A stretch of 64,000 bases of DNA from Minisyncoccia bacterium (GTDB lineage: Bacteria; Patescibacteriota; Minisyncoccia; Phycocordibacterales; UBA9973). The position numbers and the translations under genes are program-made. A model generated the notes under the pieces. The model had not been told where the DNA came from and did not search any database. It saw only the letters and a program-made list of their open reading frames with translations. Positions 12,938-59,684 of the stretch are shown here, in pieces. Positions within the stretch are counted from its first letter, which is position 1; every line of letters starts with the position of its first letter. The stretch lies in the NCBI GenBank assembly GCA_049287045.1, contig JBAQFC010000001.1, positions 3,309-67,308 of the forward strand, in the 5' to 3' direction.

Positions 12938-13519
12938 ATGAAAAAATTTTTTAAACAAAAGAATAATATAAGTGGTGGTTTTACATTAATAGAAACTCTT
13001 GTTGCTATTTCTATTTTTACTATGTCTATTGTTTCTGTGATGGTTGTTATTTCGGGTGGTATTTCAGACACTAATTATGCTAAAAAGAAAATAGTTGCAG
13101 GATATCTAGCTCAGGAAGGTATTGAGGAAATGCGTAATATGCGAGACACGTCTGTTCTTTATTTTGGAGCAACTGGTCAGATCGGATGGGATAAATTTGT
13201 TACCAATATTGCCTCGTGTCTTACTGTAAATGGATGTTATTTTGATAATAGTGAGATACTTTATTCTAATGACAATATGCCAATAATGCATGTCTCACTC
13301 CCTCCTTGTAACCAAGTTTGTCCATCAATTATGTTTGATGAGACTAGTGGAAAATATGAATATAACCCAGCGGGTGTGGATTCTGGTTTTAATCGTAAAA
13401 TTACTGCAGTTCACTATACTCCAGATGAAATAAAAATTACTTCAACTGTTTCTTGGGTGCAAGGTTCCGGTGTCGCTTCAGTAACTTTTTCAGAAAATTT
13501 ATTTAATTGGACACAATAA
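12938..13519 (+). CDS. minor pilin / pseudopilin (SGG|FTLIETLVAI)
   Basis: class III leader, Glu+5. Confidence 0.7.
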   Translation: MKKFFKQKNNISGGFTLIETLVAISIFTMSIVSVMVVISGGISDTNYAKKKIVAGYLAQEGIEEMRNMRDTSVLYFGATGQIGWDKFVTNIASCLTVNGCYFDNSEILYSNDNMPIMHVSLPPCNQVCPSIMFDETSGKYEYNPAGVDSGFNRKITAVHYTPDEIKITSTVSWVQGSGVASVTFSENLFNWTQ

Positions 13520-14041: not shown

Positions 14042-16111
14042 TTGGTCATGGATAAGAAAGAAATAGAAAAGAGAATAAAAAAATTACGAAGTGAGATTGC
14101 ACGTCTACGCAACGCATACCATATAGAAAATGCACCAAATGTGACCGATGATGTTTACGATTCTTTAACTCGAGAGCTCAAATCCATTCTTTTAAAATAT
14201 CCAGAATTTGCTGATTTAAATTCTTTAGAAAATAGAGTTGCAGGGCGTCCGCTGGATAAATTTGTTAAAGTTGAGCATAGCATACGTATGCTTTCTTTAA
14301 ATGATGTTTTTAGTTATGAAGAACTTGATGGTTGGGAAAAGAGAATAAAAAAACTTCTACCACCTCAAAGGTCGGACCTTATGTATTTTTGCGAAGTAAA
14401 ATTTGATGGTTTGGCTGTGTCTTTGGTTTACGAAAAAGGTATCCTTGTCAAAGGTGCGACTCGTGGGGACGGTCTTGTTGGTGAAGATATAACCCAAAAT
14501 TTAAAAATGATAAAGAGTATACCTATAACTTTGCATTCTCCTTACCCTGAATATATTGAAGTAAGAGGGGAAGCAATCATGTCAAAAAAGACACTTGTTG
14601 ATTTAAATAAAAAAAATGAAAAAGAAGGCAAACCATTATTTGCAAATACTCGTAATGCTGCAGCCGGTTCACTTCGACAACTTGACCCTAAACTAGCCGC
14701 TGAAAGAAATCTAGATTTTTTTGCGTATGATATTGCAGAGGTGAAGTTTGTGGAGCCAAAAAGGTCGGACCTTAAGAATTTAGAAAGGTCCGATCTTGGG
14801 AATCTATTGGCTCCACAAACTCATTCCGAAAAACATTCTCTTTTAAAAAATCTGGGTTTTAAAGTAGACTCCAATGATGCTCTTTGTAAAAATTTAAAAG
14901 AAGTTGAGACTTTTATTAAAAAATTTGAAAAAATTCGTCCCAATTTTTCTTTTGGTACAGATGGGGTGGTTATCTCTGTTGATGATTTAAAGTTACAGGA
15001 AGTTTTAGGAGTTGTTGGTAAAGCTCCACGTTATATGGCTGCTTTTAAATATCCTGCGGTTCGAGCAACAACAACTGTAAAAGATATAAAAATAAATGTT
15101 GGCCGTACTGGGGCACTGACACCACTTGCTATTTTTGAACCAACCCTGGTTGCTGGTTCGACCGTTTCCAAGGCAACCCTGCACAATATGGATCAAATAG
15201 AGCGTCTTGATTTGCGTATAGGAGATACTGTAGTGATAGAAAAAGCTGGAGATGTTATTCCGAAGGTTGTAGAAGTTCTTCATAATATGCGTACAGGCAA
15301 GGAAAAGAAATTCAAAATGCTAGAAAAATGTCCAGCCTGTGGAGGTGCTGTAGAAAAAAGGGCTGGTGGTACCGGCGAGACAGTAGCATATTATTGCACG
15401 AATCCAGAATGTCCGGCAAAAAATGAAAGATATCTAGATCATTTTGTTACTGCTTTTGAGATTTATGAATTAGGTCCTAAAATATTGAGAAGATTTAAAG
15501 ATGAAGGATTAATTACTGACGCGGGAGATATTTTTTCTCTTACAAAAGAAGACATTGCGCCCCTAGAAAGATTTGGTGAAAAGAGCGCAGAGAATATTGT
15601 AAAAGAAATTGAATTAAAAAAGAAAGTTTCATTTTCTCGCTTTTTGTGGGCACTTGGAATACTACACGTAGGTACTGAAACTGCACGAGATTTGGCTTCA
15701 AACTTTGGCACCTTAGATAAATTAATGAAAGCCAATATAGAAGAAATAAATGAAATAGAAAATATTGGTCCAGCTGTTTCAGAAAGTGTTTATGATTATT
15801 TTCATAACAAAAACAATTTGGCTTTTGTTGAAAAATTACAAAAAAATGGAGTAGTGATAAAAAAAGAAGAAAAGAAAAAAGGTGGTAAATTTACTGGAAT
15901 GACTTTTGTAATTACCGGTACTCTCGCAGATATGTCACGTGAGATAGCGAAAGAAAAAATAATTTCTTTAGGGGGCAAAGTTTCAGGTTCAGTTTCCAAG
16001 AATACTTCTTATGTTTTGGCTGGAACTGATCCTGGGTCAAAGTTTAAAAATGCTGAAAAGCTAGGTGTTAAAATAATAGGGGAAGAAGAGTTTCTGGAGT
16101 TGTTAAAATAA
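14042..16111 (+). CDS. ligA: NAD-dependent DNA ligase LigA
   Basis: KxDG adenylation motif (EVKFDGLAVSL); Zn-finger CPACGG...C; HhH and BRCT C-terminus; contains two copies of the AAGGTCGGACCTT palindrome. Confidence 0.9.
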   Translation: MVMDKKEIEKRIKKLRSEIARLRNAYHIENAPNVTDDVYDSLTRELKSILLKYPEFADLNSLENRVAGRPLDKFVKVEHSIRMLSLNDVFSYEELDGWEKRIKKLLPPQRSDLMYFCEVKFDGLAVSLVYEKGILVKGATRGDGLVGEDITQNLKMIKSIPITLHSPYPEYIEVRGEAIMSKKTLVDLNKKNEKEGKPLFANTRNAAAGSLRQLDPKLAAERNLDFFAYDIAEVKFVEPKRSDLKNLERSDLGNLLAPQTHSEKHSLLKNLGFKVDSNDALCKNLKEVETFIKKFEKIRPNFSFGTDGVVISVDDLKLQEVLGVVGKAPRYMAAFKYPAVRATTTVKDIKINVGRTGALTPLAIFEPTLVAGSTVSKATLHNMDQIERLDLRIGDTVVIEKAGDVIPKVVEVLHNMRTGKEKKFKMLEKCPACGGAVEKRAGGTGETVAYYCTNPECPAKNERYLDHFVTAFEIYELGPKILRRFKDEGLITDAGDIFSLTKEDIAPLERFGEKSAENIVKEIELKKKVSFSRFLWALGILHVGTETARDLASNFGTLDKLMKANIEEINEIENIGPAVSESVYDYFHNKNNLAFVEKLQKNGVVIKKEEKKKGGKFTGMTFVITGTLADMSREIAKEKIISLGGKVSGSVSKNTSYVLAGTDPGSKFKNAEKLGVKIIGEEEFLELLK

Positions 16112-18393: not shown

Positions 18394-18404
18394 ATATTTA
18401 TTTT

Positions 18405-18449
18405 CCCCGATACCTGGTTTAGGGTAATCCCCTAAACCAGGTATCGGGG
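18405..18449. promoter_or_regulatory. perfect 20-bp inverted repeat with 5-nt loop (ccccgatacctggtttaggg-taatc-ccctaaaccaggtatcgggg) in the divergent GH3/truB intergenic region
   Basis: read directly; 20/20 complementarity. Confidence 0.5.
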
Positions 18450-18508
18450 AAACGGTCTTTTGCCATATATAGTATACCAAATTGTGCTACAATAATTTCA
18501 TATTAAAT

Positions 18509-19339
18509 ATGATTAAAGTTACCCAATCTAAAAAAATTAAGAAAAGTATTATCCTAGACAAAAAAGAAGGTGAGACTCCTCTACAATCGTTAGAAAAATT
18601 TCGTAACAAAAACCCAGAATACAAAAATGTATCGATGACTTACGCAGGAAGATTGGACCCAATGGCTTCAGGTTTGCTTTTGATATTGGCAGGAGAGGAA
18701 GTAAAGAAAAAAGAAAAGTATTTAGCACTACCAAAAGAGTATGAATTTGAAATTCTCTTTGGTTTTGCGACGGATACGTATGATATTTTGGGGAAAGTTT
18801 TGTCTTGCGTTAGGCAAGACCTAACGCAAGAGTCTGAAAGTAAAAAATTAAAAAAACTTATCCAACAAAACTTAAAATTTTTTACTGGGAAGTTTATTCA
18901 GAAATACCCACCGTATTCTTCAAAGCCAGTGAATGGGAAGCCGATGTTTGCGCATTCTCGAGCTGGCACTAAAGTAATAATTCCAGAAAGAGAAGTTTCT
19001 GTATCTAAGTTGGAGTTATTAAAAGTAAAAAAAATAAATAAAATAAAACTTTTAGAAAATATAGAAAAAAGAATTAACAAAGTTGATGGTCCTGCCCGCC
19101 CTCACGAAGGTTCGGGAGCAGGCGGGGATTTTCGTCAGAAAGAAATCATAAAAATTTGGCAGAAAGAATTAACGAGAAACAAAAAAAGTATTGAAAAGTT
19201 CTTGGTGGTAAAATTTAAAATTAAGTGTGGTAGTGGAACCTATGTGCGGGGGATAGCGAACTCATTGGGTGATAAGGTAGGTATACCAGCATTGGCTTTC
19301 TCTATAAAAAGGACAAAAATAGGAAAATGGACTAAATAG
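18509..19339 (+). CDS. truB: tRNA pseudouridine(55) synthase TruB-like
   Basis: ILDKKEGETP...GRLDPMASGLLLIL catalytic Asp motif; GTYVRGIA motif; start at second in-frame ATG. Confidence 0.7.
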   Translation: MIKVTQSKKIKKSIILDKKEGETPLQSLEKFRNKNPEYKNVSMTYAGRLDPMASGLLLILAGEEVKKKEKYLALPKEYEFEILFGFATDTYDILGKVLSCVRQDLTQESESKKLKKLIQQNLKFFTGKFIQKYPPYSSKPVNGKPMFAHSRAGTKVIIPEREVSVSKLELLKVKKINKIKLLENIEKRINKVDGPARPHEGSGAGGDFRQKEIIKIWQKELTRNKKSIEKFLVVKFKIKCGSGTYVRGIANSLGDKVGIPALAFSIKRTKIGKWTK

Positions 19340-28505: not shown

Positions 28506-28517
28506 TAAAATATAAAA

Positions 28518-28551
28518 CAAAAAGCCCGCGACCAAGGTCGCGGGCTTTTTG
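28518..28551. terminator. bidirectional terminator (agcccgcgacc-aa-ggtcgcgggct plus T5) between gyrB and thrS
   Basis: 11-bp GC-rich stem flanked by A and T runs. Confidence 0.7.
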
Positions 28552-28563
28552 TTTATATTTGTT

Positions 28564-41878: not shown

Positions 41879-41892
41879 ATATTTAAATTAAA

Positions 41893-41927
41893 ATAAAGCC
41901 CCCGACCTTAGGTCGGGGGCTTTATTG
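41893..41927 (+). terminator. rho-independent terminator (agcccccgacc-tta-ggtcgggggct plus T-run)
   Basis: read directly. Confidence 0.7.
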
Positions 41928-43182: not shown

Positions 43183-43446
43183 ATGGTGACTGTAACTAAA
43201 AAAATTGATACAGAATGGTTTGAGTTAGTTCTCTCTGGAAAGAAGAAATTTGAACTTCGTCTTGCTGATTTTGATATAAAAGAAGGGGATATTTTAAGAC
43301 TTGAAGAATATACAGAAGAAAAGAAACCAACAGGAAGATTTATCGAAAAAGTTGTAACTTATGTTCGCAAACCTGATTTGTCTGAATGGATAAAACAACA
43401 GCCAGAATTATTAGAAAAATCTTTTTTTGTTATTCAGTTTGATTAA
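43183..43446 (+). CDS. ASCH/DUF3850-like small PUA-fold protein
   Basis: EWFELVLSGKKKFELRL...GDILRLEEY pattern. Confidence 0.45.
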   Translation: MVTVTKKIDTEWFELVLSGKKKFELRLADFDIKEGDILRLEEYTEEKKPTGRFIEKVVTYVRKPDLSEWIKQQPELLEKSFFVIQFD

Positions 43447-43447
43447 T

Positions 43448-43475
43448 TGTGTATAAATGTCGAAGGTCGGACCTT
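43448..43475. repeat. 28-bp direct repeat copy A (TGTGTATAAATGTCGAAGGTCGGACCTT); core is the 13-bp perfect palindrome AAGGTCGGACCTT
   Basis: 27/28 identity with 44388-44415; contains a TGnTATAAAT extended -10-like element. Confidence 0.8.
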
Positions 43476-43503
43476 TAATATTTTACGTGATACAATATAT
43501 TTT

Positions 43504-43818
43504 ATGTCATACAAAATTGTTGTTTATGTGCCCCTAGAAAACGCTGATACTGTTCGAGATGCAATAGCTAATGCTGGGGGAGGAAAATTAGGCAAATACA
43601 CACATTGTACTTTTTCTGTTAGAGGAACAGGTCGTTTTAAGCCTGAAGATGGTGCCAATCCACATATTGGAAAAGTTGGTGAATTAGAATTAGTTGATGA
43701 AGAAAGAATTGAAGTAACTTGCCAAAATAATGTTATGAGTAATGTTGTTGCAGCTATCAAGAAAGTACATCCATACGAAGAAGTTGCAATGGATATTTAT
43801 GAGTTAACTGATTTGTAA
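43504..43818 (+). CDS. Nif3-family C-terminal (YqfO-C-like, PII-like fold) domain protein, standalone
   Basis: KIVVYVPLENADTVRDAIANAGGGKLGKYTHCTFSVRGTGRFKPEDGANPHIGK...VHPYEEVAMDIYEL matches the YqfO C-terminal domain. Confidence 0.55.
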   Translation: MSYKIVVYVPLENADTVRDAIANAGGGKLGKYTHCTFSVRGTGRFKPEDGANPHIGKVGELELVDEERIEVTCQNNVMSNVVAAIKKVHPYEEVAMDIYELTDL

Positions 43819-44341: not shown

Positions 44342-44345
44342 TCCC

Positions 44346-44380
44346 AATACATAGGAAACTCCTGTGTATTCTATGTATTG
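44346..44380. other. 10-bp-stem hairpin (caatacatag - 15-nt loop - ctatgtattg) just after the NTase stop
   Basis: read directly. Confidence 0.45.
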
Positions 44381-44387
44381 GAATAAC

Positions 44388-44415
44388 TGTGAATAAATGT
44401 CGAAGGTCGGACCTT
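44388..44415. repeat. 28-bp direct repeat copy B (TGTGAATAAATGTCGAAGGTCGGACCTT)
   Basis: 27/28 identity with copy A. Confidence 0.8.
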
Positions 44416-45635
44416 CGATAGAAGGCTTATGTTATAATAAAAGTGTGAAAACAAAAATAATTTCAAAAAGTAAATACAAAATTACATACGGAGGATGGTA
44501 TCAGCGAACAACACTCCATCTTAGTGAAATATATATGTTGTTTATGCATGGCACCTCCAATTTGAATTTATCAAAAGAAGAACTCAAAAAGTTTCAAGAA
44601 GGGCTTCAGCTTGCCAGTATTTCCCGCGAATCCGGTTATTTTGAATATATCAAAGCAGTAACAACATCAGGCATAGAAGTCCGATATTATGAAGACGGTC
44701 TTTATACTTTAGATATTTATTCTGATGATATTTCGACTGCACAAGATATGCTTGAAAAATATTTTCAAGAAAAACTTAGTCCGGCGATCTCTTTTATTTT
44801 TTCTCTTGGCGCACCGACTCCAAAAATATTAGCAAATATAAAGACAGACCACCCAGTCGCAGTGAGTATTTTAAACGATAAAAATGATAATTTTATTTTA
44901 GATGAATCTTTGTTCGGTGAAGTTTATACTAAAATTTCAAGTGGAGGTATTACAGTATATAAAACTCCGAAGTATATTTTTATTTCTGCCCCAAGAGAAG
45001 CAGGGAAATACATGAATGATGTTATTGAGATGCAAATTTTCTTCCGAGAATTCAAGGACCAGCTTGAAAAATATTTGCATATTCACAGGACTATTTGGGA
45101 AGAGATTTCTAATATCAAGGAAGCAAAGATAATTAAAGGCAAGGATGTTGAAGAAATAAGAGGTAGACTCGATGGTTATCAAAAAACAATCAGTCTCATC
45201 AGTAATCGAATTAATCAGATGAATTCTTATATCAATACTCGTTCTTCTATTGCAAAAAATCTTGAAATTGAAAAGGAACTGGTGGCTCTTTTTGAATATA
45301 AATTTGAAACACTAACTGATACATTGTCTTATATCAAAGAAATATGGAAAATGACCGGTGATTATCTCGCGTCAGCTATCGGTAATCTTGTGGAAATAAA
45401 AAATCAAAGTACGAGTAATAATTTAAAATCTCTTCAGACTATTACAAGTATTGGAGTGATTTCGGGAGTAATAGGCTATTTATCGGCAAGCAAACTACCA
45501 AGCATTAGTAAAGAAGGGGCCGTATATTTTATTATTCTTTTTTGTTTGACTTGGCTTATGAATTTTATAATCTCAAAGAGATATAAGAATAAGAAATATA
45601 GTTTAAAATTTGGTGACCGCGCATCCAACATATAA
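44397..45635 (+). CDS. hypothetical protein with C-terminal TM helix; true start uncertain (the track start lies inside repeat B; Met residues at about residue 47 and about 50 are alternatives)
   Basis: ORF; predicted coiled-coil middle; C-terminal hydrophobic segment. Confidence 0.35.
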   Translation: MSKVGPSIEGLCYNKSVKTKIISKSKYKITYGGWYQRTTLHLSEIYMLFMHGTSNLNLSKEELKKFQEGLQLASISRESGYFEYIKAVTTSGIEVRYYEDGLYTLDIYSDDISTAQDMLEKYFQEKLSPAISFIFSLGAPTPKILANIKTDHPVAVSILNDKNDNFILDESLFGEVYTKISSGGITVYKTPKYIFISAPREAGKYMNDVIEMQIFFREFKDQLEKYLHIHRTIWEEISNIKEAKIIKGKDVEEIRGRLDGYQKTISLISNRINQMNSYINTRSSIAKNLEIEKELVALFEYKFETLTDTLSYIKEIWKMTGDYLASAIGNLVEIKNQSTSNNLKSLQTITSIGVISGVIGYLSASKLPSISKEGAVYFIILFCLTWLMNFIISKRYKNKKYSLKFGDRASNI

Positions 45636-47948: not shown

Positions 47949-48719
47949 ATGAAAGAAACAAGAATTATTATGGGCATGCCTGTAATAATAGAAATCCCTG
48001 ATGATTCTGTAGTTAAAGAAATATTTAATCTTATTTTTGATTATTTTTCTTATATTGATGAAAAATTTTCTCTTTATAAAGAAACAAGTGAAATAACAAA
48101 AATAAATAAAGGAGAAATTAAAGAAGATGAGTACAGTGAAGATATGAAGGAGGTTTTAAAGTTGTCTGAAGAAACAAAAAAAGAAACAGGTGGTTTTTTT
48201 GATATTATGAATAATGGATTATGTGATCCGTCTGGAATAGTAAAGGGTTGGGCTATTCATAATGCATCAGAAATTCTTCGCAGAAACAAAATTAAAAATT
48301 TTTATGTTGAAGCTGGAGGTGATATTGAGGTAGAAGGTAAAAATAATGATGGTAAACTTTGGGCTATAGGCATCGCTAATCCTTTTGATTTAAAACAAGT
48401 AGTAAAAGTTGTATACTTAGAAAATAAGGGGATTGCAACAAGTGGTACATATATACGCGGACAGCATATATATAACCCGAAAAAGTTTGCGGAAGTCGTT
48501 GCGGAAGTCGGACTTCCGCAGGACATAGTGAGTTTGACTGTTATTGGTCCGAATGCTTATGAAGCTGATCGTTTTGCTACAGCTGCCTTTGCGATGGGGA
48601 GAGAAGGAATTATTTTTATTGAGAATCTTCCCGGTTTTGAAGGATATATGATTGACAAAGACGGAATAGCGATAATGACAAACGGTTTTGAAAAATATTT
48701 GATACAAAAAAATGCTTAA
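47949..48719 (+). CDS. apbE: FAD:protein FMN transferase ApbE (no signal peptide)
   Basis: MGMPVIIEI, SEITKIN, GGFFDIMNNG, KGWAIHNASEIL, GGDIEVEG, WAIGIANP, ATSGTYIRGQHIYNP, EADRFATAAF motifs. Confidence 0.85.
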   Translation: MKETRIIMGMPVIIEIPDDSVVKEIFNLIFDYFSYIDEKFSLYKETSEITKINKGEIKEDEYSEDMKEVLKLSEETKKETGGFFDIMNNGLCDPSGIVKGWAIHNASEILRRNKIKNFYVEAGGDIEVEGKNNDGKLWAIGIANPFDLKQVVKVVYLENKGIATSGTYIRGQHIYNPKKFAEVVAEVGLPQDIVSLTVIGPNAYEADRFATAAFAMGREGIIFIENLPGFEGYMIDKDGIAIMTNGFEKYLIQKNA

Positions 48720-56538: not shown

Positions 56539-57987
56539 TTGTTTTTAATTATTAATAAATCGTCATCTTTTAAAAATATGAAAATATTAAACAAGGTTTC
56601 TATTGCGTCCGTCTTGGTTTTTGCTTTCGTTTTAGGTTTTACTGGATCATCTACTGCAAATGCAGCTGGTCCTTCGGTAGTCAATCTTGGATCAGCAGGT
56701 GATTTTGTCCTTCTTGGAAAAACAGGAATCTCAACTACTGGGACAACTGCAATCACAGGAGATATTGGAGTCAGCCCTGCCGCAGCGACTTATATCACTG
56801 GATTTGGATTAATAATGGACACCTCAAATACATTCTCAACATCTTCTCTTGTTACAGGTAAAGTTTATGCAGCTGATTATACTGCTCCAACTCCAACTAA
56901 GATGACTACAGCTATCAGTAATATGGAAACTGCTTACACTGATGCTGCAGGAAGAACAAATCCAACTGCAACTGAATTGGGCTCCGGAAATATTGGTGGA
57001 TTAACAATTGCACCTGGACTCTACAAATGGGGTACTTCTGTGATAGTGCCGACTGATGTTACTTTATCAGGAAGCACAAACGATGTTTGGATTTTCCAGA
57101 TAGCACAAGATCTTTCTTTAAGTTCTGGTGTTCATATCAATTTGGCTGGTGGTGCAAAAGCTGAAAATATTTTCTGGCAGGTGGCTGGTCAAACAACCTT
57201 AGGAACAACTTCTGTTTTTAACGGAAATATTTTAGACCAAACAGCTGTTGTATTTAATACTGGCGCAACATTAAATGGTAGAGCTCTTGCACAAACTGCT
57301 GTTACATTGGATTCAAATTCTGTAATTATTCCCGCAGTTGTTTCTGTAACTCCAACCCCAGAAGTAACACCAACACCTGTAGTTACACCAACTACTACAG
57401 TAAATACGACCGTAACACCTACATCAACAACTATAACTCCAGTCACAACTGTTACAGCTGCCACAGGTTGTCTACAAGGAAATGCTTTTAATACAGCCAC
57501 TGGTGCTTCTTGTACTCCTCCTATTTCTGCAAGTGAAGGTTGTCTGCAAGGTAATATGTTTAACACAGTTACAGGTACTGCTTGTACTTCCGTTGTTGTC
57601 TCTGTTGACACAGGTTGTTTACAAGGAAATAAATTTAGTATAACTACAGGAAATACTTGTACTTCTTTCGTTCCTAATGTTTCTACTAATACTACTACTT
57701 CAACTGTATCAACTACCACTACTCCAGCCAATTTTGGCCAACTAATAAAATCAATTGCTGTTAATCTTAATATGGGTAGCAAAGGAGATTTAGTAAGAAG
57801 TCTTCAAGAGTTTCTAATTTCACAAGACAAAGGTCCTAAAGCAAAAGCTCTAGATGCCCACGGTACAACTTTAAACTTTGGATCTTTAACTAAAGCAGCT
57901 TTGGCTGAGTGGCAAGAAGCTGTTGGTATTTCTCCAGCGCTAGGAAACTTTGGACCAATAACTCGAACTTTTATAAGTGCAAATTAA
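56539..57987 (+). CDS. secreted DUF3494 (ice-binding-like beta-solenoid) protein with three tandem 20-aa Cys repeats (GCLQGNxFNTxTGxxCT) and a C-terminal peptidoglycan-binding (PGBD-like) domain
   Basis: signal peptide; NLGSAGDFVLLGKTGISTTGTTAITGDIGVSPAAATYITGF; three 60-bp DNA repeats at 57467-57650; C-terminal LVRSLQEFL...AALAEWQ. Confidence 0.55.
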   Translation: MFLIINKSSSFKNMKILNKVSIASVLVFAFVLGFTGSSTANAAGPSVVNLGSAGDFVLLGKTGISTTGTTAITGDIGVSPAAATYITGFGLIMDTSNTFSTSSLVTGKVYAADYTAPTPTKMTTAISNMETAYTDAAGRTNPTATELGSGNIGGLTIAPGLYKWGTSVIVPTDVTLSGSTNDVWIFQIAQDLSLSSGVHINLAGGAKAENIFWQVAGQTTLGTTSVFNGNILDQTAVVFNTGATLNGRALAQTAVTLDSNSVIIPAVVSVTPTPEVTPTPVVTPTTTVNTTVTPTSTTITPVTTVTAATGCLQGNAFNTATGASCTPPISASEGCLQGNMFNTVTGTACTSVVVSVDTGCLQGNKFSITTGNTCTSFVPNVSTNTTTSTVSTTTTPANFGQLIKSIAVNLNMGSKGDLVRSLQEFLISQDKGPKAKALDAHGTTLNFGSLTKAALAEWQEAVGISPALGNFGPITRTFISAN

Positions 57988-58013: not shown

Positions 58014-59684
58014 TTGACATTACGCGACATGATTTTGCAAAATCAAAAATATATGAAAAAGTTTAATAAAATTTCAATACTCGTGTTAGTTATTGTGTTT
58101 GCTCTTGGAACGGCTGGACTAATAAAAGCCAGAGCTGCTTCAACAGTAAGTCTCGGCACAGCAGATAACTTTGCAGTTTTAGCTGGATCAGGAATTACAG
58201 ATACAACACCTTCTGTTGTTAGTGGAGATGTTGGTTTGAGTCCAACTACTGGTGCAGCTATTGGTATAACCGTTGGTGAAGTAACAGGTACGGTATATGC
58301 TGTTGATGTGGCTGGGCCAGTTGGTTCAGTAAATAATCCAGGTTTATTAACTTTAGCTAAAGATGCTTTAACAACTGCTTACGGTGTAGCTGCTGGCCAA
58401 GCACAAACATCTGCAATTGTTGCTGATCTTGGTGGACAAACATTAACACCAGGTGTTTATAATTCTGGTTCTTCTATTGGACTTACCGGTACGGTCACTC
58501 TTGATGGTGGTGGTGATGCAAATGCAGTTTTTATTTTTCAAGCTGGTTCCACTCTTACTACCGCATCAGCCAGTCATGTTAATCTAATTAATAGCGCTCA
58601 AGCTTGTAATGTTTTTTGGCAAGTTGGCAGTTCGGCTACTCTTGGAACAACTTCTGATTTCAAAGGAAATATTCTTGCTTTTTCTTCTATTACAGATAAC
58701 GGAGGTTCGACTGTAGACGGAAGACTCTTAGCAAGAAATGCTGCAGTTACATTAAACAATACTCATGTTACTAAATCAACATGTTCAACTCCTGTTCCTA
58801 CACCTACACCAACGCCTACTCCAACTCCAGTAGCACCTTTAATTAGTATTGAGAAAGTTCCATCTTTATTGTCCTTGTCTGTTGGAGGTGGATTAATTTC
58901 ATTTGATTATACAGTTTTAAATGTTGGAACAGTTGCTATGAGCAATGTCACAGTTACTGACAATAAATGTTCTCCAGTAGCTTTTATTTCAGGTGACACC
59001 AACAGTGATTCAAAACTTGATTTAACTGAAACTTGGAAATATAATTGTACCTCAACAGTTACACAAACAACCACAAATACAGCCACTGCGACTGGTCAAG
59101 CAAATGGTTTTACTGCAACTGATACTGCAGATGCAACTGTTGTTGTTGGTGCAGCACTTCCATCACCGTTGATCCATCTTATTAAAAAGCCAAGTGTAGA
59201 TACTCTTCCATCTTCTGGTGGAGCAGTTACCTATACATACACTGTGACCAACCCTGGTACAGTTGCTTTGAGTAATGTAAGTGTTGTTGATGATAAATGT
59301 AGTTCAGTTTCTAGTCACTCGGGTGATACAAATAACAATAATTTGCTTGATATTTCAGAAACATGGACTTATACATGTCAGTCCAATCTTACACAAACAA
59401 CTACAAATAAAGGTACAGCTGAGGGAAGTGGTAATGGTTTGACTGCTATTGATTATTCTCTTGCTACAGTTACTGTAGCTGGTTCAGTCGTAGCTCCTGT
59501 AGTAGTCTCTACTCCTGTTGTAAAAGCTTCTACCACAACAACTTCTGTAGTAACAACTCCTAAGTTGCCAAATACAGGATTTGCTCCCGAAGAAAAAAGT
59601 AATGTCTGGAATATTATTATCCCTGCTGGAATTTTTATTACTCTATTTTCATTCTATTTAGCTAAAAAGAAACAGATAATCTAA
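58014..59684 (+). CDS. LPNTG-anchored surface protein: DUF3494 (ice-binding-like) domain, Pro/Thr linker, two DUF11-like repeat domains
   Basis: signal peptide; SLGTADNFAVLAGSGITDTTPSVVSGDVGLSP; PTPTPTPTPTP linker; two ~100-aa repeats with conserved Cys pairs; C-terminal LPNTG, hydrophobic helix, KKKQ. Confidence 0.65.
   Translation: MTLRDMILQNQKYMKKFNKISILVLVIVFALGTAGLIKARAASTVSLGTADNFAVLAGSGITDTTPSVVSGDVGLSPTTGAAIGITVGEVTGTVYAVDVAGPVGSVNNPGLLTLAKDALTTAYGVAAGQAQTSAIVADLGGQTLTPGVYNSGSSIGLTGTVTLDGGGDANAVFIFQAGSTLTTASASHVNLINSAQACNVFWQVGSSATLGTTSDFKGNILAFSSITDNGGSTVDGRLLARNAAVTLNNTHVTKSTCSTPVPTPTPTPTPTPVAPLISIEKVPSLLSLSVGGGLISFDYTVLNVGTVAMSNVTVTDNKCSPVAFISGDTNSDSKLDLTETWKYNCTSTVTQTTTNTATATGQANGFTATDTADATVVVGAALPSPLIHLIKKPSVDTLPSSGGAVTYTYTVTNPGTVALSNVSVVDDKCSSVSSHSGDTNNNNLLDISETWTYTCQSNLTQTTTNKGTAEGSGNGLTAIDYSLATVTVAGSVVAPVVVSTPVVKASTTTTSVVTTPKLPNTGFAPEEKSNVWNIIIPAGIFITLFSFYLAKKKQII

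Follow-up and report, generated by a model that had tools for sequence, protein, structure and literature searches.

The closest described counterparts of the element analyzed here are the REP and REPIN repeats with their Y1 transposases, designated RAYT, RayT, or TnpA-REP (Nunvar 2010; Bertels and Rainey 2011, PMC3116915; Di Nocera 2013, PMC3733652), and the Rickettsia palindromic elements (RPE), which reside in frame in genes (Ogata et al. 2000, 2002, summarized in PMC10969869). Intragenic REPs have been reported in other phyla, many of them in replication and repair genes, with hosts including DNA ligase (Opitutus terrae), TruB (several species), and tRNA synthetases (PMC3733652). A third precedent is provided by coding palindromes in mitochondrial genes of Nematomorpha (PMC6649704). 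Here we analyze 64 kb of a Minisyncoccia bacterium (Patescibacteriota; contig JBAQFC010000001.1), henceforth called the window, that is, the entire stretch of 64,000 nt, in which a palindromic 13-mer, AAGGTCGGACCTT, occurs in four exact copies, two of them inside ligA, the gene for NAD-dependent DNA ligase. We consider it likely that this 13-mer is the unit of a REP/REPIN-like family of mobile hairpins that tolerates in-frame residence and is linked to RayT-like transposases. Repeats of this family were found in Patescibacteria, bacteria of the candidate phyla radiation (CPR), both between genes and, to an unusual extent, in frame within housekeeping genes.

In several respects the repeats resemble REP/REPIN-RAYT systems: a short GC-rich palindrome is repeated far above chance, inverted doublets of it fold as hairpins, single Y1/HUH transposase genes are flanked by the repeats (here seen in relatives), and in-frame intragenic copies occur in genes for DNA ligase, TruB, tRNA synthetase, and repair proteins. 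They differ in that the four window copies carry no GTAG/CGTC tag (in a palindrome variant of locus L021, the stem is followed by CTAC, which is GTAG on the other strand; L-numbers denote loci or contigs used for comparison), that the core comprises only 13 nt, and that most doublets are enclosed by longer stems peculiar to each copy. Described REPs are predominantly extragenic, whereas open reading frames (ORFs) contain about 60% of the exact doublets among the matches listed in our metagenome scan. Moreover, the transposases are only distantly related to curated RAYTs, their scores staying under the NCBIfam cut-off, and the hosts are CPR/Patescibacteria. A literature search for such repeats in CPR bacteria and for the literal sequence found nothing relevant.

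With RPEs the family shares palindromic repeats that are in frame in many unrelated housekeeping genes of a small AT-rich genome, an added peptide judged to be compatible with the protein fold, and TruB as a target. RPEs have a lower size bound of about 100 bp, and we know of no transposase tied to RPE-1, whereas a link to RayT-like genes exists here. An RPE-type insertion in frame into a functional ORF fits the full-length LigA of the window and the 116 inserts in 80 LigA genes described below; in size, RPEs are described as about 150 bp long (PMC10969869), versus 37–77 nt here. The Nematomorpha palindromes are likewise long perfect inverted repeats in protein-coding genes with both arms translated, and the concerted arm change observed here may have its parallel there. 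They differ in being organellar (PMC6649704), in having arms of up to 284 bp, and in having neither a dispersed conserved core nor an associated transposase.

Palindromic units in the window

The units and their surroundings are arranged as follows, hot spots being LigA positions at which related genes carry inserts as well.

14042–16111, + strand: ligA, NAD-dependent DNA ligase, ORF of 689 aa from TTG 14042
14368–14380, + strand: solo REP-like palindrome AAGGTCGGACCTT at LigA hot spot 1, in frame, read as RSDL (aa 110–113)
14745–14821, + strand: 77-nt in-frame hairpin insertion at LigA hot spot 3, encoding KFVEPKRSDLKNLERSDLGNLLAPQT
14761–14773, + strand: REP arm 1 of the inverted doublet, an exact copy of AAGGTCGGACCTT
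14774–14784, + strand: spacer (loop) of 11 nt, AAGAATTTAGA; family consensus AAGAATTCAAA (nine doublets, eight genomes)
14785–14797, + strand: REP arm 2, AAGGTCCGATCTT, an inverted copy of arm 1 in which a single C-to-T substitution produces a G-T pair
43438–43480, + strand: 43-nt intergenic repeat unit with REP at 43463–43475, 86% identical to the following unit
44378–44420, + strand: second 43-nt intergenic unit, with REP at 44403–44415

The four exact copies of the 13-mer in the whole window all lie on the + strand, and none appeared in 100 of 100 dinucleotide-preserving shuffles of the window, bearing out the excess over chance that a sequence-only reading of this DNA had asserted. A fifth unit, AAGGTCCGATCTT, was found once mismatches were allowed. 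The five units are clustered in two places, three of them in ligA, where they share one reading frame and are each translated as R-S-D-L, as that reading had stated. Its position for the first ligA copy was correct, that for the second (14751–14763) was off by 10 nt, and the degenerate third copy it mentioned exists, but at another spacing, starting 24 nt after the start of the second copy with the 11-nt spacer in between. An assembly artefact was considered and rejected, since the same architecture recurs in many independent assemblies; the Logan contig L081 carries the 44403 copy independently of the window assembly.

An over-represented short motif that is also present in coding regions could be a DNA uptake signal sequence; CPR bacteria have competence pili, and a type IV pilus cluster adjoins ligA, with pilin-like ORFs directly upstream of the gene. 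Known uptake sequences, however, are evenly spread at about one per kb, whereas the units found here are clustered and have a density of about 1 per 13–16 kb. We rejected this candidate on density (four or five units in 64 kb), and the inverted doublets and the association with RayT-like genes point elsewhere as well, rendering an uptake function extremely improbable.

Over its full length, window LigA matches its E. coli counterpart (2owo; E 4e-155), and it contains all LigA Pfam domains. It is 100% identical to the NCBI model P0001 (687 aa, labelled 'Minisyncoccia bacterium'), which, judged from its length and the sequence, would start at ATG 14048, two codons after TTG 14042. The 77-nt insertion lies inside the adenylation domain (PF01653, aa 73–339), and not between this domain and the OB fold as had been thought. 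The surplus of about 20 aa proposed at the same time is real, amounting to 18 extra residues around positions 236–253 relative to 2owo and to 17 aa at hot spot 3 relative to L002, the closest insert-free relative (30 versus 13 residues between YD and HS.KH). The doublet at 14761–14797 is 37 nt long and nested in the 77-nt hairpin: its 13-mers, with central bases G (14761 unit) and C (14785 unit), constitute a 13-bp inner stem, and a perfect 15-bp outer stem is formed by AGTTTGTGGAGCCAA (14745–14759) and TTGGCTCCACAAACT (14807–14821). Folding of the 77-nt element yielded −26.3 kcal/mol (z −8.9) as DNA and −44.2 kcal/mol (z −7.5) as RNA. In an AlphaFold2 model of window LigA (66 homologs; mean predicted local distance difference test score, pLDDT, of 81), pLDDT over residues 241–260 was 57 and 69, compared with 80–95 in the flanks, and values below 50 were confined to residues 252–254 and 442–445, which match hot spots 3 and 4. 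According to the model, the hot spot 3 insert probably forms a short, flexible extra surface loop, at a position that would be compatible with the LigA fold. The sequence-only reading had assigned all ligA copies to one insertion; this applies to the units at 14761 and 14785, while the solo unit at 14368 occupies a different site, directly before the CEVKFDG motif (KxDG adenylation motif). There the window is one codon longer than L002, whose sequence at this site is unrelated and of normal length, and the sister L001 harbors a full inverted doublet that makes it exactly 24 nt (8 codons) longer than the window.

Between the end of the first intergenic unit (43438–43480) and the TG of an extended −10 element, TGaTACAAT (43488–43496), there are 7 nt, and ATG 43504 begins 7 nt after this element. 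The second unit comes after a terminator-like hairpin (44344–44381), has its REP extended to a 19-nt palindrome, TCGAAGGTCGGACCTTCGA (44400–44418), and ends 9 nt before TGtTATAAT (44430–44438), which is followed after 6 nt by GTG 44445 of the downstream gene, a start fixed by NCBI model P0241 (396 aa) and by homologs of 385–400 aa. As read from the sequence, both units would precede extended −10 promoters; a consensus promoter scan did not call the 43488 and 44430 sites. In the syntenic region of L202, the orthologous promoter retains TGTTATAAT (−10) and the start codon but lacks the palindrome, with no AAGG-N5-CCTT anywhere in its 6.2 kb, which marks the 44403 repeat as an addition specific to the lineage rather than a conserved operator.

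Some further observations concern these two sites. TGnTAYAAT stands 6–7 nt before the start codons (window 43488–43506 and 44430–44447; L202 2485–2503) with no Shine-Dalgarno sequence visible, which suggests leaderless mRNAs from both promoters; the arrangement is conserved in L202. A public gene call on L081 sets the start at ATG 44397, inside the repeat unit, with ATGTCGAAGGTCGGACC reading MSKVGP; ATGTCGAAGGTCGGACCTT at 43457, the same as near 44397, opens a 26-codon ORF only. No database record was found for the products (104 and 123 aa) of the gene that follows 43463.

Hairpin inserts in related LigA genes and spread of the doublet

For comparison we used 80 Nomurabacteria/Paceibacterota loci, each comprising ligA ± 10 kb. 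In an alignment of 120 LigA homologs, both insert positions of the window proved to be length-variable, with recurring peptide motifs. The sister L001 (93% LigA identity) has a different hairpin at hot spot 3 and L002 (84%) has none; the ligA segment is lineage-specific, as suspected from the sequence, and window, L001, and L002 differ in insert state at the same LigA sites. Inserts recur at four positions, at each of which the doublet family is represented.

Hot spot 1, window residue ~113: insert in 21 of 80 LigA genes; doublet family in the window (solo unit) and L001
Hot spot 2, window residue ~173: insert in about 28 of 80 LigA genes (30 inserts listed); doublet family in L075
Hot spot 3, window residue ~244: insert in 32 of 80 LigA genes; doublet family in the window and L075
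Hot spot 4, window residue ~448: insert in 33 of 80 LigA genes; doublet family in L073, L021, L066, L019, L020, and L041

Nearly all of the 116 inserts in the 80 genes are hairpins (median fold z −5.5; z < −3 in 78%). They fall into several unrelated sequence families that are GC-richer than their own genomes; at least one of these, the separate KNSSAFLHP-type hairpin family, occurs in both orientations relative to the host gene. Perfect-stem hairpins with a stem of at least 11 bp numbered 0.48 per kb in ligA, 0.03 in other coding DNA, and 0.39 in non-coding DNA (largely terminator-like), corresponding to a roughly 15-fold higher density in ligA than in other coding DNA of the related loci. 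By gene family, there were 81 hairpins in 81 LigA genes, 7 in 30 TruB genes, and 5 in 17 PheT genes, and not one in the 124 genes of the largest neighboring family, which we take to be pilus ATPases. No target-site duplication was seen when the window was compared with the empty site of L002, a site too diverged for this negative to be firm. An Rfam scan of the window at gathering thresholds returned tRNAs only and no match for the hairpins; at E ≤ 1, L004, L005, and L010 gave tRNAs plus two weak matches that fell well short of the gathering score (24 bits), namely sX4 over a tRNA and the microRNA-precursor model MIR2646 over the L005 ligA hairpin.

A REPIN-like doublet consists of two inverted units separated by about 9–13 nt, and the family form found here is AAGG-N5-CCTT, the 11-nt spacer, and the inverted unit. 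In nine aligned doublets from eight genomes, 97.4% of the cells are paired and 8 of the 13 pairs have changed on both sides, a level of covariation reached in 0 of 500 shuffles. Outside LigA, the doublet family is present in pheT (L066) and in intergenic DNA (L007, L079). Across the 80 loci and the window (1.49 Mb), AAGG-N5-CCTT was seen 60 times versus about 17 expected from composition, 46 of the 60 units being in long ORFs. A scan of public metagenome contigs for the exact doublet (AAGGTCSGACCTT-N9-13-AAGGTCSGACCTT) identified at least 120 contigs. Among the matches listed, ORFs of 200 aa or more have 76 of 127 exact doublets (about 60%) well within them. In 121 of these 127, the two arms have opposite central bases, as inverted copies predict, and the GC content of the contigs lies between 0.29 and 0.62. 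A longer stem specific to the copy encloses the doublet in 45 of the 76 coding and 32 of 50 non-coding cases listed; the stem surrounding the L143 doublet is terminator-like (GC-rich stem, then a T run). Listed hosts assigned by Pfam are PurL, Tgt, IF-2, TopA, ArgRS (two), and GlmS, while LigA and PheT hosts were assigned from flanking peptide motifs, not Pfam. The presence of the doublet across relatives and metagenomes, the lineage-specific ligA segment, and the absence of the 44403 copy from L202 support the earlier proposal of one element residing both in intergenic DNA and in a tolerant in-frame protein loop.

As an observation on host range, L085, L193, L197, L153, and L100 (GC 0.51–0.59) carry the exact 13-mer doublet in frame in PurL and GlmS; such GC-rich contigs hint at a spread beyond Paceibacterota.

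The coding copies raise the question of selection on the protein, according to which the R-S-D-L (K-R-x-D-L-K-N-S) peptide is useful to LigA and the DNA palindrome incidental. In line with this notion, a single frame is common to all LigA family copies, and RSDL is also the predominant frame among the 76 coding doublets listed (46/15/15). Yet in other hosts all three frames occur, with peptides such as KVGP or QGPTL, the same sequence is present in non-coding DNA, and the arms covary at the DNA level in a manner that alters the peptide on both sides; in our judgement, the codons AGG TCG GAC CTT also seem atypical for a genome of 33–34% GC. Because of the DNA-level covariation, the non-coding copies, and the use of all three frames, we regard a peptide-level repeat as largely refuted and as a highly improbable explanation.

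A second possibility dispenses with a transposase: hairpins might grow in place through intrastrand template switching at quasi-palindromes or through slippage of 24-nt units, with the same conversion keeping the arms identical. Several findings are in line with such growth. The outer stems are copy-specific and made of local coding sequence, the orthologous pheT inserts of L004 and L029 differ in their outer stems although both are perfect, L001 and the window differ at hot spot 1 by exactly one 24-nt unit, and at hot spot 3 the ancestral LigA sequence was x-(R/E)-(Q/S)-(D/N)-L to begin with. What in-place growth leaves unexplained is the identical doublet in unrelated genes and intergenic DNA of at least 120 contigs with GC contents of 0.29–0.62, and the palindromes flanking RayT-like genes (see below). 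As the main cause it appears unlikely to us; template switching may, though, have acted as a secondary process on inserted elements.

A regulatory function was considered in two forms: an operator for a dimeric transcription factor, the ligA sites then serving as roadblocks, or a hairpin in the mRNA by which ligA translation or stability would be adjusted. Covariation of the arms would be expected if the structure were under selection, hairpins are about 15-fold more frequent in ligA than in other coding DNA, and, as read from the sequence, both intergenic copies occupy the place of a −35 element upstream of a putative extended −10. Against this stand the L202 promoter with its conserved −10 and start codon and no palindrome, the presence of inserts in only 25–40% of LigA genes per hot spot and their derivation from unrelated families, the occurrence of the KNSSAFLHP-type family in both orientations, the absence of an Rfam match, and the simple promoter scan, which called neither site. 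We rejected the operator as the principal interpretation because the orthologous L202 promoter lacks the palindrome, the silent promoter scan being in line with this decision, and judge regulation overall to be a very unlikely origin of the repeats.

RayT-like transposase genes and the proposed mechanism

The reading that we prefer, a REP/REPIN-like mobile hairpin family, draws on transposase genes found next to the palindrome or its variants in related and metagenomic contigs, the reference case being the following.

L077, 164–847: RayT-like ORF of 227 aa with the motifs YHIYNRG, NHFHLL (HUH), and YIHLNP

The L077 protein scores 28.3 bits with Pfam Y1_Tnp (cut-off 23) and 39 bits with NCBIfam REP_Tyr_transpos, below the cut-off of 80. 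Palindromes of the ATCAAGGATACTCCTTGAT type lie on both sides of its ORF: the 3' end of the ORF overlaps with AAATATCAAGGATACTCCTTGATATTT, the core of which, CAAGGATACTCCTTG, is found about 30 nt upstream of the ORF, and the ORF itself contains a related copy. A homolog in L021 (48% identity to L077) is accompanied by TAGCAAG(A/G)ACCGT(T/C)CTTGCTA, with four copies upstream and one downstream. In L125, 36 nt separate an exact AAGGTCSGACCTT doublet from the RayT-like ORF downstream of it, in L145 (Ca. Moraniibacteriota) an exact doublet is in frame inside such an ORF, and the homologs of L162 and L098 lie between palindromes of their own, each with an internal copy. H-hydrophobic-H motifs are NHFHLL (L077, L021, L162), NHYHMI/NHYHLI (L145, L125), and NHLHLV (L098); the proteins also show motifs of the Y(I/V)H(L/V)NP type. 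The family has 2768 relatives at E ≤ 1e-10; those that are named belong to CPR bacteria (Moranbacteria, Parcubacteria), and the JGI label on relatives is 'REP element-mobilizing transposase RayT'. The alternative offered by the sequence-only reading, a recognition site for a DNA-binding protein, is thereby compatible with a mobile element instead of competing with it, given RayT-like Y1 transposase genes flanked by the palindrome or its variants. Not noticed in that reading were the longer hairpin around the 13-mers, their REPIN-like arrangement as an inverted doublet, the connection to transposases, and how widespread the phenomenon is.

Every RayT-like gene examined contains an in-frame copy of its own flanking palindrome (L077 324–336; L125, L145, L098, L162). 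The copy falls within the variable stretch that separates the HUH motif from the N-terminal YH..NRG motif and could reflect autoregulation or self-targeting. A second RayT-like subfamily (L037, L039; its palindrome also at L077 1–30) is flanked by a different palindrome, CAGAGCTTTAGACTCTG. The L037 and L039 genes reside within the type IV pilus cluster upstream of ligA, where L056 and L048 have the palindrome alone.

By analogy with described systems, the transposase would recognize the folded hairpin on single-stranded DNA and copy or move it. Genic insertions would persist only if in frame, free of stops, and located in tolerant surface loops, and a persisting insert would appear as a short flexible extra loop, such as the 17–18 aa in LigA. 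The solo units (14368, 43463, 44403) could be primary insertions or else remnants after loss of one arm by recombination or slippage between the two 13-mers. Copy-specific outer stems might originate from insertion into the loops of existing hairpins or from later extension of the palindrome by template switching.

A number of points weigh against this scenario. With tblastn, no RayT-like gene was found in the 64-kb window, and phmmer with a RayT-like protein against PDB sequences gave no meaningful match. REP_Tyr_transpos is the only NCBIfam match of the RayT-like proteins, and all of them remain below its curated cut-off (18–50 versus 80 bits). The window copies have neither the GTAG nor the CGTC tag that marks most described REP families, and their density is low (5 units in 64 kb). 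The frame bias, with all LigA family copies and 46 of the 76 coding metagenome copies listed being in the RSDL frame, is a further objection, because random insertion with selection only against stops predicts none. Perfect copy-specific outer stems are not a described REPIN feature. Finally, transposition itself is proposed by analogy with REP/REPIN-RAYT and IS200/IS605 systems.

The recurrent hosts act on nucleic acids (LigA, TruB, tRNA synthetases, TopA, IF-2, Tgt), and similar gene classes are hit by unrelated REP/RPE families in Opitutus, Stenotrophomonas, and Rickettsia. In a further-reaching interpretation, which we consider doubtful, the repeats would not be random passengers. Insertion would take place into single-stranded hairpin loops, creating self-perpetuating hot spots (the four in LigA; the L143 doublet in a terminator loop), the host bias would reflect a mechanistic or functional coupling, the in-frame copies in transposase genes would serve autoregulation, and the 13-mer at GC contents of 0.29–0.62 would represent one widely transferred transposase-repeat system. 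If true, the coupling could consist, for example, in an influence of the hairpins on how strongly replication and repair enzymes are expressed or how active they are.

Further hairpins and significance

Two more in-frame hairpins or palindromes were encountered in the window.

18803–18831, + strand: in-frame hairpin TCTTGCGTTAGGCAAGACCTAACGCAAGA in truB, encoding SCVRQDLTQE, with the core AGG-CAA-GAC-CT
48500–48520, + strand: in-frame 21-nt palindrome TGCGGAAGTCGGACTTCCGCA in an ApbE-like gene (47949–48719), encoding AEVGLPQ, with a GTCGGAC core

The truB-type hairpin is also present in TruB of L001, L005, and L038 and in LigA of many loci; its core AGGCAAGACCT (VRQDL) recurs in relatives in LigA (around aa 580 and at hot spot 3) and in PheT. 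The palindrome of the ApbE-like gene is preceded by a direct repeat, GCGGAAGTCGTT (region with both, 48489–48520), and may be another small insertion, its membership in the same family being uncertain.

Between a GH3-like gene and truB, the window has a perfect hairpin with a 23-bp stem, TTTCCCCGATACCTGGTTTAGGG-TAATC-CCCTAAACCAGGTATCGGGGAAA (18402–18452), and L001 has a different perfect stem of 24 bp at the same position (13446–13495). Sequences at L066 4621, L044 1652, and L072 4535 resemble the GGGGAAWTCCCC-centered family of this hairpin, which may be another hairpin repeat family or a set of bidirectional terminators. A repeat with 14-bp inverted ends, ATCCCGTTAGAAAT, occurs at L004 848 and 9923, L018 3038 and 12105, L022 3560, L068 583, L035 178, L003 10332, and L079 8951; its intergenic form has an AT-rich interior containing TATAAT, and its in-frame form, with a GC-rich interior, encodes NPVRNREGSQRPSISNG in LigA hot spot 1 and in a membrane protein. 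Strong bidirectional terminator-like hairpins at 28515–28554 and 41892–41926 of the window have GACC-WW(W)-GGTC apices, the inverse of the GGTC-G-GACC core, which is probably a coincidence. Diverged tandem repeats of 72–75 nt together with a 330-nt-spaced repeat, apparently coding, are located at 57450–57666 and 59016–59419.

Intragenic REPs as such have already been reported in other phyla, and their CPR version appears to be undescribed. The repeats have practical consequences. They can break assemblies, of which the public 2.2-kb contig L081 with the 44403 unit might be such a case, and gene callers can mistake upstream repeats for coding sequence, as with the ATG 44397 call. At the protein level, inserts lengthen proteins and make their length variable. 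To our knowledge, the mechanism by which RPEs insert in frame is still unresolved; a RayT-like Y1 transposase is a likely mechanism for in-frame coding palindromes of the kind described here. The preference for ligase, TruB, and tRNA synthetase genes is extended to a distant superphylum, and why these genes are preferred has become testable through thousands of natural insertion/empty-site pairs. CPR/Patescibacteria genomes are usually called streamlined; here, selfish-looking hairpin repeats reside in their essential genes. The LigA genes of 80 species average about one perfect-stem hairpin each, with four sites used recurrently.

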